Both the position numbers and the translations under genes were made by a program. A stretch of 64,000 nt of DNA from assembly GCF_044324875.1 (NCBI RefSeq), contig NZ_CP172185.1; one strand, written 5' to 3'. The stretch comes from Escherichia coli. Lineage in GTDB: Bacteria; Pseudomonadota; Gammaproteobacteria; Enterobacterales; Enterobacteriaceae. Shown piece by piece: positions 1 to 2,994 of the stretch (position 1 is the stretch's first letter; every line of letters starts with the position of its first letter). The notes beneath the pieces are model-generated. The model saw only the letters and a list, made by a program, of their open reading frames with translations, was not told where the DNA came from and did no database searches.

Positions 1-606
1 GTATTTATCCATCAGTACTCATTCAAAAGTACCTGGAAAAAATGCCCGCTATGCCAAGCGGGCAAATTGCTTACATGTGGAATTAAGTAATTAACGATAA
101 AGCCAGAGTATTATCATTTATCATGCCTCTTCATTTAATCAGGTTAATTACTCAAATCACTGAACTATTCTCTGTTCGCTCACTGATGATAAGTGAAGTG
201 TCACAACCACGATTTGTATGTGGACCAATGCTGTAGAGTAAGGATGAAATGTCTCTGCCACGCCTTAAACATCTACTACTGACTAGAACCGCCGTCGAAT
301 GCAGAAGAGTCTTGTGAGCATTACAGGAGTCTGGCTTTGGTCATTAATCAACGCTATTTAGATATAAATTTCTAACACTCAAAAAACGATTCTCACGAAT
401 AAATTATAACGGGTGGTTTTTATCATACAGTGAAATAACCTTTTGCTTATTAAATTTAACATTCTTGTGCTAAATTAATTAAAAGTACCATGTATAGCAT
501 ATGAAGCTGTTAATGCCAGCAATTGTCTCAAATGAGCGATTTTTTATAGTGACAAACAATAATAACATTAAAAATAGCCATGTAGACATTAACTGAGGAA
601 AAGACA

Positions 607-2061
607 ATGTTAGTTAGTAAAAGCAACGAAATTAACACTAGCACATTTATAAATAGTGGAAATTGTAATGAAAGAAAATCTTCTAAATCCATGGAGTTAC
701 TAGCTTATAGTATTATAAAATTAATTTGTAAAGAAGCTGCCTCAGGGACGTATAACGGTGCTCTTGAAATTTTACAAAAAATGATGTCTGAATGTAAATA
801 TCATGAAGGCAATGCTTTTGTCATTATGGGAGCCGGAGAACAATTAAAACGTATTAAATATGATGCTAATGAAAATAAATTAAAAGTATACAACGTACAC
901 TTTGATAATAATCAAGAGTTAGTTGCTGATGGTGAGCCTGACGTAGTATTTTTAAAAAAAACGGTGTGGGAAGACCTTCTCGTTAAACTAAAGCTGGAGA
1001 ACAAAGAAAATGCGGTTTCTGAAATTAACCTGTCATCTAATAAAAATAATGTTGATCAGTTTATTGAATGCGCTAAGAGAAATGAACAGACCCTATTCGG
1101 CAATATAAGAAAAAGTGATTTTCATGTTGCTTCACTTCAGCCAGGTAGAACGCGTAGTGTTATTTCAGAAACGCCGCCAAATGACTGTATGGAATCACAT
1201 AATTTATATGAAAACCACACAGATAAGGTTTCAACTGTAACTAAAAATTCTCAGCAAGTTAAAGGTCACTATGGAGATAAGTTGAAAGAAATGCAGTTGT
1301 TCCTCAACCAGATGAGCAATGCACTTCAACAGGATTCATCTTTGTTAGAGTCAAAGGAACACACCATAGATATTCAAGAAAAAACGAATAAGTTTGTGCA
1401 GCATTTTCAGCGGGTATTATTTGATAAAAATGGAAGGTCATCAGAGTTTCTACTTAATTTTTATGAGTGTTGCTATAAGTTTTTACCAAGAGCGCAGCCT
1501 CAAGATAAAATCGATAGCTATAATTCAGCACTGCAAGCTTTTTCCATCTTTTGTTCATCTACGTTGACACATAATAATGTAGGGTTTAATTTCAAATTAT
1601 TTCCAGAAGTCAAGTTGTCTGGAGGAGAGCTTGAAACGGTATTCAAATACAAAAATGGAAATTTTGTCTGGGAGATAGCCAGAATTAAAATTGCTATCCC
1701 AAAAGAAGAGGGTGGTTTATATAATTTACGTGGATTGGATTTTAAGGGATGCTTCTTTTCTGGACAGAACTTCAGTAACTATGATATTCAATATGTGAAC
1801 TGGGGAACGTCATTGTTTGATGTTGATACTCCGTGTATTTTTAATGTGCCTGATGACAATAAGAGTTATGATAAATTATTAAAATCCGTCAGCGAAAATG
1901 GTTTAAATGGAGTCTTGACTGATCGTAATAATAAAATAAAACTAATCACGGGCGTGGCACCATTCGATGGTATTTCATCTATGGATGATGACTTTGATGA
2001 TAGTTCCTCTGAGGAAAATTCCCCTGAGGATAGTCCCATTGAGAATCGTCCCCTTGTATAA
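607..2061 (+). CDS. Hypothetical protein (484 aa), AT-rich orphan gene; C-terminal pentapeptide-repeat-like segment and acidic tail; function unknown
   Basis: Long ORF with GAGG ribosome-binding site about 8 nt upstream of ATG 607. Sampled 60-nt lines are roughly 23-35% G+C versus about 50% in the rest of the window. No signal peptide or transmembrane segment visible. Residues about 386-430 form consecutive pentads x-[D/N]-[L/F/I/W/V]-x-x. I do not recognise the protein. Confidence 0.6.
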   Translation: MLVSKSNEINTSTFINSGNCNERKSSKSMELLAYSIIKLICKEAASGTYNGALEILQKMMSECKYHEGNAFVIMGAGEQLKRIKYDANENKLKVYNVHFDNNQELVADGEPDVVFLKKTVWEDLLVKLKLENKENAVSEINLSSNKNNVDQFIECAKRNEQTLFGNIRKSDFHVASLQPGRTRSVISETPPNDCMESHNLYENHTDKVSTVTKNSQQVKGHYGDKLKEMQLFLNQMSNALQQDSSLLESKEHTIDIQEKTNKFVQHFQRVLFDKNGRSSEFLLNFYECCYKFLPRAQPQDKIDSYNSALQAFSIFCSSTLTHNNVGFNFKLFPEVKLSGGELETVFKYKNGNFVWEIARIKIAIPKEEGGLYNLRGLDFKGCFFSGQNFSNYDIQYVNWGTSLFDVDTPCIFNVPDDNKSYDKLLKSVSENGLNGVLTDRNNKIKLITGVAPFDGISSMDDDFDDSSSEENSPEDSPIENRPLV

Positions 2062-2326
2062 AGTTCTAAAAGCAGTTTTCAATGATAAATAAACTGCAGG
2101 TTTTACAAAGAGATAATAACGTAGATTGAAACAATATGTATTATTGATTGATTAAACGGGATTATTTTTTACACTACAACCATTTTGCTGCTACTACCAA
2201 AGAAAAAGGGGCTACGCTTTCACGTAACCCCTTGATCTGCGCTGTGATTTACTGAGTTTAAATTGGTGCTGTAATTGGTTGAAATATTTCATCTAATGTC
2301 TGATTCAACTTTCCTTAGCTGCCTGA

Positions 2327-2610
2327 AAGTTTTTTGATCTTACCCAGCAACAACAGCGTTATGGTGCACCATGCCTGACTGATGAACTGCGTGCTCAGGG
2401 TTACCACTTCAACGTAAAACCGTGGCAGCAGGGCCGGACTGAACAAACGGCTCAGGACATTATCGGTAGGTGACACACTGGTTGTCTGCAAACTGAACCT
2501 ACTGGGGCGCAGTATGCGGCATCTTGCCGTGCTGTTGGAGGAGCTGTGCGAACGTGGTATTAACTTTCGTGCTCTGACTCTACCAATATTTGCCCAACAA
2601 TGAGGGGACG
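2327..2610 (+). pseudogene. pinH: Decayed serine-recombinase (Pin/Gin/Hin DNA-invertase family) fragment, with an overlapping out-of-frame stretch resembling an IS3-family transposase
   Basis: Frame 0 from about 2418 reads [50 protein letters not shown], matching the central region of Gin/Pin/Hin invertases; no start, N-terminal catalytic region or C-terminal helix-turn-helix. A second frame (2327-2473) reads [20 protein letters not shown], reminiscent of IS3-family transposase. Both are truncated by stops. Confidence 0.5.
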
Positions 2611-2994
2611 AAAACTGTAAAAGTAAAACAATCTGCAATCTCAATGTTATTGTGTGATTTTTATGTGAGCAGAAGATATTCATCAGAAACGATTATGTAA
2701 ATCATTTTATTTTTCCGACGGCTTCAATGTCGAAAGAAAAGAATACGCCGTATTTCCTGAAAAGATTGACTTTTTTATCCAATCATCCTTCAGCACAATG
2801 TCTTAAAAAAATGCCTCATTCTTATGCGGAATATCATCATTTCATCATGATGTCTTTGATGAGCGGTGAACACAATACACTTGCGCTGTCTCTTCAGGAT
2901 GAATCCCCTGGTCTGGTGCCTGTGGGCTGATGTTGCAGCAAAGCTAAGGTCGCTTAAACGCTACTCAGTATTCACTTTTCAGAGGATGAAATTT

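Follow-up and report, generated by a model that had tools for sequence, protein, structure and literature searches.

The left end of a 64,000-nucleotide stretch of Escherichia coli DNA (contig NZ_CP172185.1, hereafter the window) consists of AT-rich sequence that leads up to ypjA and, beyond it, ssrA. The locus raises the question of whether this sequence belongs to a genomic island delimited by a tRNA gene or by a repeat of the ssrA 3' end, and of which transcript, if any, is terminated by a GC-rich hairpin near its first letters. We conclude that positions 1-2994 very probably form the central part of a strain-variable, AT-rich block of 10,753 bp, which consists of old acquired DNA and is immobile, and that the hairpin is not the terminator of a gene on its left.

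Gene content of the segment and its left flank

GC content is 0.334, 0.346 and 0.406 for positions 1-1000, 1001-2000 and 2001-3000, and about 0.50 over most of the window. An open reading frame at 607..2061 on the plus strand (GC 34%), labelled an orphan gene in the original prediction, encodes an intact protein of 484 aa. It carries the Pfam domains DUF5507 (E=5e-76) and DUF5508 (E=1e-136) and matches the NCBIfam model NF050179 for YpjCB over its full length (932.7 bits, cutoff 650), in line with the RefSeq annotation. Judged by its sequence, the protein is YpjCB, the unsplit form of K-12 ypjC and ypjB, and thus belongs to a named family rather than being an orphan. A reading of YpjCB as a pentapeptide-repeat protein or effector received no support from Pfam at E<=0.1.

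A second terminator-like hairpin, with a 12-bp stem in minus orientation, lies at 2206..2233, 145 nt past the ypjCB stop. It is followed on the plus strand by two fragments that bear out the recombinase relics proposed earlier. The first, at 2348..2420, is a fragment of an IS3-family transposase, recognized from its translation, from a weak Pfam HTH_21 match below cutoff (E=0.004) and from 63 nt that megablast aligned to a gene annotated as IS3 family transposase (H110). The second, at 2421..2579, is an internal fragment (53 aa) of a serine recombinase or invertase (Pfam Resolvase, PF00239, E=7e-7), which RefSeq labels "recombinase family protein, incomplete" and which K-12 annotates at the same place as the pseudogene pinH. 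The rightmost gene of the variable block is ypjA (EhaD; 2995..7569, plus strand), encoding an adhesin-like autotransporter; its first 2 kb are AT-rich (44-47% GC) and the C-terminal half has normal GC content. The right edge of the block, at about 7578, shares the interval 7576..7600 with a bidirectional hairpin (stem 7583-7600 and a T-run on the minus strand) that is the ssrA terminator. The tmRNA gene ssrA itself (7730..8092, minus strand; ARAGORN and Rfam, 292.8 bits) is unoccupied, given that repeat searches and the comparison with K-12 revealed neither a CP4-57-type element nor a second copy of its 3' end. The first core gene on the right is smpB (8307..8789, minus strand; open reading frame and annotation).

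The sequence to the left of position 1 was inferred from relatives that are 99.8-100% identical to the window, the source strain itself being absent from the genome collection at 100% identity. Both NY1601 (99.8% identity over window 1-12000, 26 mismatches) and SCU-313 (99.9% over 1-3000) have a tRNA-Ile gene 150 nt before position 1, then ygaQ, glaH, lhgO and gabDTP, and the order in K-12 is identical. The tRNA gene is ileY, a tRNA-Ile(CAU) gene on the plus strand with its 3' end toward the window, and a spacer of 756 bp separates it from ypjCB. The alpha-amylase-like gene ygaQ is on the minus strand; it starts 785 nt left of position 1 and reads leftwards. Extension to the left had been proposed as a search for a tRNA gene, an integrase and a repeat of ssrA: it yielded the tRNA gene but neither of the other two, and core sequence resumes at glaH. 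In the numbering of the extended locus (L002, in which 9950-10094 corresponds to window -51 to 94), GC content is 29-47% across 6500-15000, compared with 53-62% in glaH-gabD.

Extent, breakpoints and origin of the variable block

Defined against genomes with an empty site, the block extends from window -3174 to 7578. From left to right it comprises ygaQ, ileY, the spacer, ypjCB, the IS3 fragment, the pinH fragment and ypjA, and it is bordered by two core transcription units, leftwards the glaH (csiD)-lhgO-gabDTP operon and rightwards ssrA-smpB. The left breakpoint (L002 6825/6826) is by the glaH promoter, some 200 bp ahead of the start codon of that gene and about 3.17 kb left of position 1; on this side the accessory segment does end outside the window, as anticipated. 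The right breakpoint (L002 17578/17579) falls 151 nt 3' of ssrA, beyond the ssrA terminator.

In the B2 E. coli clone D i14, which has an empty site, glaH and ssrA are 682 bp apart, a layout shared by Escherichia sp. E1V33 and E. whittamii. In all three, homology breaks off at L002 6825 and sets in again at L002 17579. The 333-bp fillers of the three empty sites are homologous to one another and missing from occupied genomes. The filler was found in 1104 of 5426 complete E. coli genomes (about 20%); at least 80% of window 1-3000 is present in only 3013 of them, and the element flanking ileY in 3092 (about 57% occupied). The block also occurs in many partial forms. The description of positions 1-2994 as AT-rich (33-41% GC) and non-core thus holds, and the block displays the presence/absence polymorphism, atypical base composition and ATA codon enrichment of an accessory region. 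ATA codons per 1000 number 28 in ygaQ, 12.4 in ypjCB and 11.1 in ypjA, compared with 0-3.6 in five core genes.

A classical island integrated at a tRNA or tmRNA gene, with ileY or ssrA as attB and copies of the RNA 3' end at its borders, might be suspected given that the 3' ends of ileY (plus strand) and ssrA (minus strand) both point into the segment. Recombinase relics are present in the segment, and both RNA genes are attachment sites elsewhere, as CP4-57 in K-12 and the PEC148 island illustrate. We nevertheless consider such an origin highly improbable. Neither 3' end is copied in the segment, in the 32-kb locus or in the whole window (23-mers with up to 3 mismatches, 14-mers with up to 2). 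The only off-target matches in these searches were two chance ones on the strand opposite ssrA, inside gabD and glaH, and a general repeat search returned no repeat involving ileY or ssrA. The annotations of NY1601, SCU-313 and K-12 show no integrase between glaH and ssrA. The only recombinase traces in the segment are fragments, and the relic derives from a serine invertase, not a tyrosine integrase. The breakpoints lie outside both RNA genes, not within a 3' end. A tRNA gene at the far end of the segment had been considered, and ileY is indeed close by, but it sits inside the block and does not bound it. Lacking both an integrase and att-type copies of either RNA 3' end, the block does not qualify as a delimited, excisable island; with about 57% of genomes occupied and about 20% empty, it is not fixed either.

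In some strains ileY itself is an integration site. In PEC148, an island of >45 kb with a tyrosine integrase adjoins a 46-nt ileY 3' fragment, and the same breakpoint in ileY recurs in five IMG/VR proviruses. These true ileY-integrated elements sit left of the flank found in the window, however, and leave a 46-nt repeat that is missing from the present segment. All 10 matches of the ileY flank in IMG/VR represent the same E. coli locus. The flank had no match in the phage collection, and its three matches in the plasmid collection are all records of 4.8-4.9 Mb, which is chromosome-sized, so a phage or plasmid origin of the block is unsupported.

The closest known arrangement is that of K-12 MG1655 (NC_000913.3), ileY-ypjC-ypjB-pinH'-ypjA-(CP4-57)-ssrA, which has the same order and orientation as the window and shares the pinH relic and ypjA. 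The distance from ileY to ypjC is 750 bp in K-12 and 756 bp here, and K-12 keeps the 160-bp spacer between ypjA and the ssrA 3' end as ypjA-psaA. The two differ in that ypjC and ypjB are split and CP4-57 is present at ssrA in K-12, whereas the window has an intact ypjCB and no CP4-57; the block is 6-8% diverged between them. CP4-57 and P4-like islands resemble the ygaQ-ypjA block in hot spot and in AT-rich accessory content, and neighbouring strains carry such elements at ssrA and ileY. Unlike the block, which has neither feature and ends outside the RNA genes, these islands carry a tyrosine integrase by a (t)RNA gene whose 3' end recurs as a direct repeat (14 bp in K-12, psaA).

A more serious alternative is that the block is ancestral Escherichia DNA, AT-rich from an acquisition that predates the genus, and was deleted once or several times. 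Given that E. albertii has a diverged ygaQ together with ileY, B2, E. whittamii and E1V33 could have lost a block that was already present in the ancestor of the genus. The ygaQ-like gene, ileY and the conserved flank occupy the same position beside glaH in E. albertii, partial forms of the block are numerous, and strains W and B are on record as having lost ileY through IS-mediated deletions (PMC3032704). A simple deletion is insufficient, however, to explain a homologous filler that empty-site genomes share and occupied genomes lack, and all three species share their breakpoints exactly. YgaQ is only 60% identical at the amino acid level between E. coli and E. albertii, compared with 97% for the neighbouring GlaH, which is indicative of alleles that are separate or have been exchanged. 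In Salmonella, Citrobacter and others, the 10 kb around glaH contain neither of the two RNA genes, so no outgroup polarises insertion versus deletion. On balance, we regard ancestry with later deletion as possible but not the likely history.

More probably, the block derives from an old horizontal acquisition, has lost any mobility functions and survives as one allele among several alternatives at the glaH-ssrA intergenic site. Alleles would be exchanged or lost by recombination in the flanking core genes, together with IS-mediated deletions. In this scenario, ileY would be cargo of the block, a dispensable second tRNA-Ile2 gene amid ATA-rich genes, which may also serve as the attachment site of other islands in some strains. 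Of the genes ileX and ileY, the former is essential and the latter dispensable (PMC11480407). Several acquisitions, and not a single one, may have built up the block, given that the C-terminal half of ypjA has normal GC content and that what is also present in E. albertii is limited to ygaQ, ileY and about 320 nt of flank.

The hairpin and a conserved element downstream of ileY

The original prediction placed a hairpin at 40-60, preceded by an A-run. Both features exist, but the hairpin occupies 44-63, 4 nt further right, or 43..64 when the outer T-A pair is included (TGCCCGCT-ATGCCA-AGCGGGCA). Its arms, GCCCGCT and AGCGGGC, enclose the loop ATGCCA, and the A6 run at 37-42 becomes a T6 run after the stem on the minus strand. 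A terminator scan found it terminator-like on that strand only (8 pairs, 6 of them GC, then TTTTTT); on the plus strand, the stem is followed by AAATTGCTT. The region contains 3 terminator-like sites, compared with 1.8 +/- 1.5 expected from shuffles, so the number of sites alone is not significant, whereas the conservation of the hairpin is.

The hairpin had been read as the terminator of a minus-strand gene lying left of position 1. It cannot end such a gene, the nearest being ygaQ, because that gene is transcribed away from it. A minus-strand terminator at this site could only stop transcripts that come from inside the window, and the annotation shows no gene on that strand from window 64 to 2315. 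With Rho-independent terminators the hairpin has in common a GC stem-loop between an A-run and a T-run; it differs in that the U-tract is on the minus strand only, whereas substitutions and fold favour the plus strand.

An intrinsic minus-strand terminator could still end a small RNA of about 65 nt, or insulate ileY from leftward antisense transcription that starts in the ypjCB promoter region. Besides the canonical minus-strand architecture in the window, there is a candidate -10 motif, GATAAT, near window 113-108 that is kept in E. albertii. On the corresponding strand, K-12 shows low-level "orphan" transcription that falls off Rho-dependently near window -35 (K-12 2785647, +; PMC7815308 supplementary file 2). 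The pairing of the stem, however, is not kept on the minus strand across alleles: the commonest E. coli allele, C47T (K-12, O157, UMB, EC7518 and PEC148), produces a C.A mismatch in the minus-strand RNA but a G.U pair in the plus-strand RNA. In the K-12 Term-seq table (PMC7815308 supplementary file 2), no 3' end is listed at the element on either strand, including near K-12 2785576 (+), K-12 being a carrier of the mismatch allele; at the locus these tables record nothing but the mature 3' end of ileY and two Rho-dependent regions of coarse resolution. An "orphan" region of the Rho-dependent kind follows about 70 nt past the site of the hairpin. Conservation also reaches 90 nt past the terminator on what would be its downstream side, and the minus-strand fold is much weaker than that of the plus strand. 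A minus-strand terminator is thus unlikely in our view.

The hairpin forms the middle stem of a conserved structured element of 145 nt, from window -51 to 94 (1..94 within the window), 100-245 nt 3' of ileY and on the same strand. The element combines a long hairpin of 84 nt (-51 to 33), the GC hairpin and an AU hairpin. Variable columns amount to 0-8% in the element and to 10-32% in its flanks among six E. coli lineages, and it is near-identical in E. albertii. The plus strand folds with -56.3 kcal/mol (z=-6.5) and the minus strand with -41 kcal/mol (z=-3.5). Substitutions in the element preserve plus-strand pairing; because all of these changes are one-sided, a shuffle control for covariation was uninformative. 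Both fold and substitutions favour the plus strand, that is, the strand of ileY, as the one on which the element would be read.

Conservation of this stretch might alternatively reflect a gene for a 41-aa peptide (MRAGVLVRGTPLQCIYPSVLIQKYLEKMPAMPSGQIAYMWN; L002 9961-10086, plus strand). This frame is open and of equal length in E. albertii, and in PEC148 a PGAP "hypothetical protein" overlaps it. Against coding, the 12 nucleotide differences from E. albertii, read off the alignment, lead to 9 amino-acid changes, with few synonymous ones, and in the C-terminal half the nucleotide sequence itself is conserved, third positions included. No ribosome-binding site is evident, and the frame is unannotated in most genomes. 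We rejected the peptide on its substitution pattern, and consider it very improbable. An ERIC- or MITE-like repeat family as the source of the long hairpin was ruled out, since the element is single-copy in every genome.

Searches of the ileY-ypjCB spacer against Rfam 15, at gathering and permissive thresholds, returned only tRNA and tmRNA, the next best hit scoring 24.5 bits against a gathering threshold of 53. RIL-seq-derived small RNA predictions and the TERMITe tables do not mention the locus. Functional 3' external transcribed spacers of tRNA genes, such as 3'ETS-leuZ, are conserved, structured and located 3' of the tRNA gene on the same strand. The element resembles them in these respects. 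It differs in that it begins 100 nt after ileY, and for K-12 a Rho-dependent drop has been reported 28 nt past the tRNA gene (PMC7815308 supplementary file 2).

As one stem of this conserved element, the hairpin at 44-63 is most likely read on the ileY strand, where it would belong to the ileY 3' trailer or act as a transcript-end or insulator structure. We tentatively propose that the element may be an unannotated structured RNA on the ileY strand, with a function at the RNA level, that travels with ileY in E. coli and E. albertii. The spacers between ileY and ygaQ and between ypjC and ileY contain constitutive promoters bound by H-NS (PMC3946193).

Implications for the glaH-ssrA locus

A strain-variable block between glaH and ssrA is already known, and its presence here is an ordinary result. 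The accessory segment ends about 3.2 kb left of the window, in the glaH promoter region, and contains a tRNA gene without being bounded by it. The locus is therefore a polymorphic, decayed and immobile variable region between the integration hot spots ileY and ssrA, and not an island of the pathogenicity-island type. For annotation, it is of value that ypjCB is intact, that ssrA is unoccupied and that ileY is accessory, with at least 20% of complete E. coli genomes lacking it. The one item of possible research value is the unannotated, conserved structured element 3' of ileY. If it is such an RNA, it might, for example, be a regulatory or stabilising RNA derived from a 3' trailer, or an insulator against read-through from the tRNA promoter into H-NS-silenced cargo.

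The left flank and content of the segment

The original prediction placed the far end of an AT-rich accessory segment left of the window, where a tRNA gene, an integrase or a repeat of the ssrA 3' end might be found. We read this flank in near-identical relatives of the source strain: SCU-313 (99.9% identity to the window over 3 kb), NY1601 (99.8% over 12 kb, 26 mismatches) and CFSAN061770 (100% across the spacer), all with an identical left-flank layout. Of the mismatches to NY1601, 18 of 26 fall in about 800 bp of recN (window 10961-11747), which looks like a small recombination patch. 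In these closest genomes a plus-strand tRNA gene does occur, ending 150 nt before position 1. ARAGORN gives it the anticodon CAT, and RefSeq and K-12 annotation name it tRNA-Ile(CAU), ileY. Leftward of ileY lie ygaQ (minus strand, 750 aa, alpha-amylase-like) and then the core operon glaH-lhgO-gabD-gabT-gabP.

Within the window, an ORF scan leaves 1-606 non-coding and identifies a plus-strand ORF of 484 aa at 607-2061. This gene had been called an orphan, yet it matches NCBIfam NF050179 ('YpjCB family protein', 933 bits against a cutoff of 650) and both Pfam DUF5507 and DUF5508. In K-12, ypjC and ypjB are annotated separately, whereas the window has a single intact ypjCB; the gene is a pseudogene, by frameshift or internal stop, in 042, UMB200201_11, EC7518, PEC148 and K-12. 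The suspected recombinase relics are present, both on the plus strand: an IS3-type transposase fragment at ~2348-2420 (translation, Pfam) and a serine-recombinase fragment at ~2421-2579 (Pfam Resolvase, E=7e-7). They are followed by ypjA (2995-7569, plus strand; ORF and annotation of relatives), ssrA (7730-8092, minus strand; RNA gene searches) and smpB (8307-8789, minus strand; ORF scan). Gene order in K-12 is identical, but there the CP4-57 prophage is inserted between ypjA and ssrA, whereas ssrA in the window is unoccupied. The segment layout is thus the K-12 reference map minus CP4-57, a real but ordinary finding.

The accessory character of the left segment is borne out by its GC content (33-41% in window 1-3000 against ~50% elsewhere in the window) and by presence/absence polymorphism. 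Among 5426 complete E. coli genomes, 5321 match window 1-3000 at least partially and 3013 with at least 80% coverage. Between E. coli lineages, the ileY-ypjCB spacer, ypjCB and ypjA (window 1-7569) diverge by 5-8%, well above typical core divergence.

Extent of the variable block and its empty sites

AT-richness continues past ileY, with GC of 29-47% from ~6500 to ~15000 of L002, the occupied reference locus (window -3500 to 5000), and GC rises to 53-62% in glaH and further out. Among complete genomes with a glaH-to-smpB stretch every intermediate form was found, and in some glaH and ssrA-smpB are at most 2.8 kb apart. In the B2 strain clone D i14, the glaH start codon lies 682 bp from the ssrA 3' end. 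Left homology ends there at L002 6825, 199 bp upstream of glaH, and right homology restarts at L002 17579 (window 7579), ten bases past the ypjA stop, immediately beyond the hairpin that terminates ssrA. A scan for GlaH with one genome per species recovered the same empty arrangement and right breakpoint in Escherichia sp. E1V33 and E. whittamii; on the left, their breakpoints fall at L002 6825 and 6772. By these breakpoints the variable unit is L002 6826-17578 (window -3174 to 7578; 10,753 bp). It contains ygaQ, ileY, ypjCB, the two relics and ypjA, so that ileY is internal to it. Given that it adjoins the ypjA stop, the hairpin at window 7583-7600 probably terminates both ssrA and ypjA. Its stem differs in a compensatory manner between occupied and empty forms (GCCCAC/GTGGGC and GCCCGC/GCGGGC, the latter at L004 ~5575-5600).

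The empty form could have arisen by simple deletion. Against this, the ~333-bp filler between glaH and ssrA in E1V33 and E. whittamii is homologous to that of B2, and a filler common to empty genomes is not expected of a deletion; occupied genomes lack it. The filler occurs in 1104 of 5426 E. coli genomes and the ileY flank in 3092. The occupied forms also appear to be old, given that in E. albertii, too, glaH is neighboured by a homologue of ygaQ and by ileY with ~320 nt of its flank. This homologue has 60% protein and 67% DNA identity to E. coli ygaQ, compared with 97% for GlaH, and past the shared flank the cargo differs. On sequence comparison, we therefore treat occupied and empty forms as probable long-standing alternative alleles. 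Near glaH in Salmonella, Citrobacter and other genera, both ssrA and ileY are absent.

The genus as a whole is hypervariable at the site upstream of glaH. Downstream of ileY in E. albertii (L011 1-6238) lie a 362-aa ORF with proline-rich repeats and a GDGNCLYHA motif, which by eye may be OTU-protease-like, and ORFs of 222 and 395 aa with no assigned function. Other occupants include a 271-aa ankyrin-repeat-like ORF in Escherichia sp. MOD1-EC7003 (L013 1526-2341) and that of locus L012. GlaH/LhgO of Pseudocitrobacter (L007, L008, L014) share 96-99% identity with their E. coli counterparts, against 85-93% for Citrobacter and Salmonella, which suggests recent operon transfer or mislabelled assemblies.

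Accessory DNA without the marks of an island

The block is not a delimited island, given that neither the ssrA 3' end nor that of ileY was found a second time in the 32-kb locus or the window, no integrase is annotated between glaH and ssrA in the relatives, and the block junctions carry no repeats. Comparison with the empty-site genomes thus settles where the block ends, and the reading as an island does not pass the tests that define one. Its behaviour is nonetheless that of accessory DNA: it shows presence/absence polymorphism, is low in GC and is enriched in ATA codons (per 1000 codons, ygaQ has 28, ypjCB 12.4 and ypjA 11.1, whereas five core genes have 0-3.6), and H-NS-bound promoters have been published for both spacers flanking ileY (PMC3946193).

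It fits a view of ileY as cargo that IS-mediated deletions removed it from strains W and B (PMC3032704) and that it is dispensable, unlike its essential near-twin ileX (PMC11480407). Between ileY alleles (L002 9775-9850, L003 33763-33838 in K-12, L011 6599-6674 in E. albertii), the anticodon stem shows a compensatory change: with numbering taken from the alignment, the window type has A-T at pair 28-42 where K-12 and E. albertii have G-C, and pair 27-43 is G-C against G.T. For a tRNA gene this is unusually fast divergence, yet function seems to be retained.

The gene also serves as an attachment site. In PEC148 a tyrosine-integrase island longer than 45 kb stops at a 46-nt fragment of the ileY 3' end, with window-type flank directly after the fragment; the breakpoints of five proviruses predicted in IMG/VR coincide with this one to the base. 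Elements integrated at ileY would lie wholly left of the window. The PEC148 island (L101/L005), whose length is a lower bound, also carries type I restriction-modification, an Ag43-type autotransporter, lactate and raffinose/sucrose utilisation genes and CP4-like modules.

A conserved element downstream of ileY

Across six E. coli lineages, window ~-60 to 125 has 0-8% variable columns, against 10-32% in its flanks, and is less variable than ileY itself. In E. albertii, window 28-105 is almost identical, and the ileY-proximal spacer has diverged with indels. A 145-nt element (window -51 to 94, L002 9950-10094) is single-copy wherever present and unannotated in those genomes; searches of Rfam, phages and plasmids returned no Rfam, phage or true plasmid counterpart. 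Its predicted plus-strand fold comprises three hairpins (-56.3 kcal/mol, z -6.5; minus strand -41 kcal/mol, z -3.5), and the E. albertii copy folds alike on the plus strand (-53.5 kcal/mol, z -5.1). The 19 copies compared comprise 6 distinct sequences and differ at 13 paired positions; 11 of these keep a standard plus-strand pair, and 6 of those 11 lose pairing on the minus strand. Apart from one pair that passes from A-U through G.U to G-C, only one side of a pair changes, and a shuffle control was uninformative.

One hairpin of this region had been predicted, 4 nt out of place, as the terminator of a minus-strand gene left of position 1. The hairpin (GCCCGCT-ATGCCA-AGCGGGC, 44-63) and its A-run (AAAAAA, 37-42) exist, but such a gene would be transcribed away from them. 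On the minus strand T6 follows the hairpin, so that only transcripts coming from inside the window could be stopped there; a minus-strand terminator is still a live rival. In the allele found most often in E. coli, a C-to-T change in the hairpin turns one stem pair into G.U when read on the plus strand and into C.A when read on the minus strand. For K-12, the Term-seq tables record no 3' end, on either strand, at the element; their entries nearby are only the mature ileY end and two coarse Rho-dependent regions, one 28 nt past ileY (K-12 2785734, minus) and one labelled 'orphan' (2785647, plus), which in window terms is the minus strand near -35 (PMC7815308). Another minus-strand hairpin, with a 12-bp stem and T-rich tail, lies at window 2206-2233, 145 nt past the ypjCB stop; for this hairpin and that at 43-64, the canonical terminator orientation opposes the sole annotated gene nearby.

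The fold and wobble pattern of the 145-nt element favour the plus strand. Our best reading is a candidate plus-strand structured element of putative function that would travel with ileY, and it is the only lead here worth an experiment.
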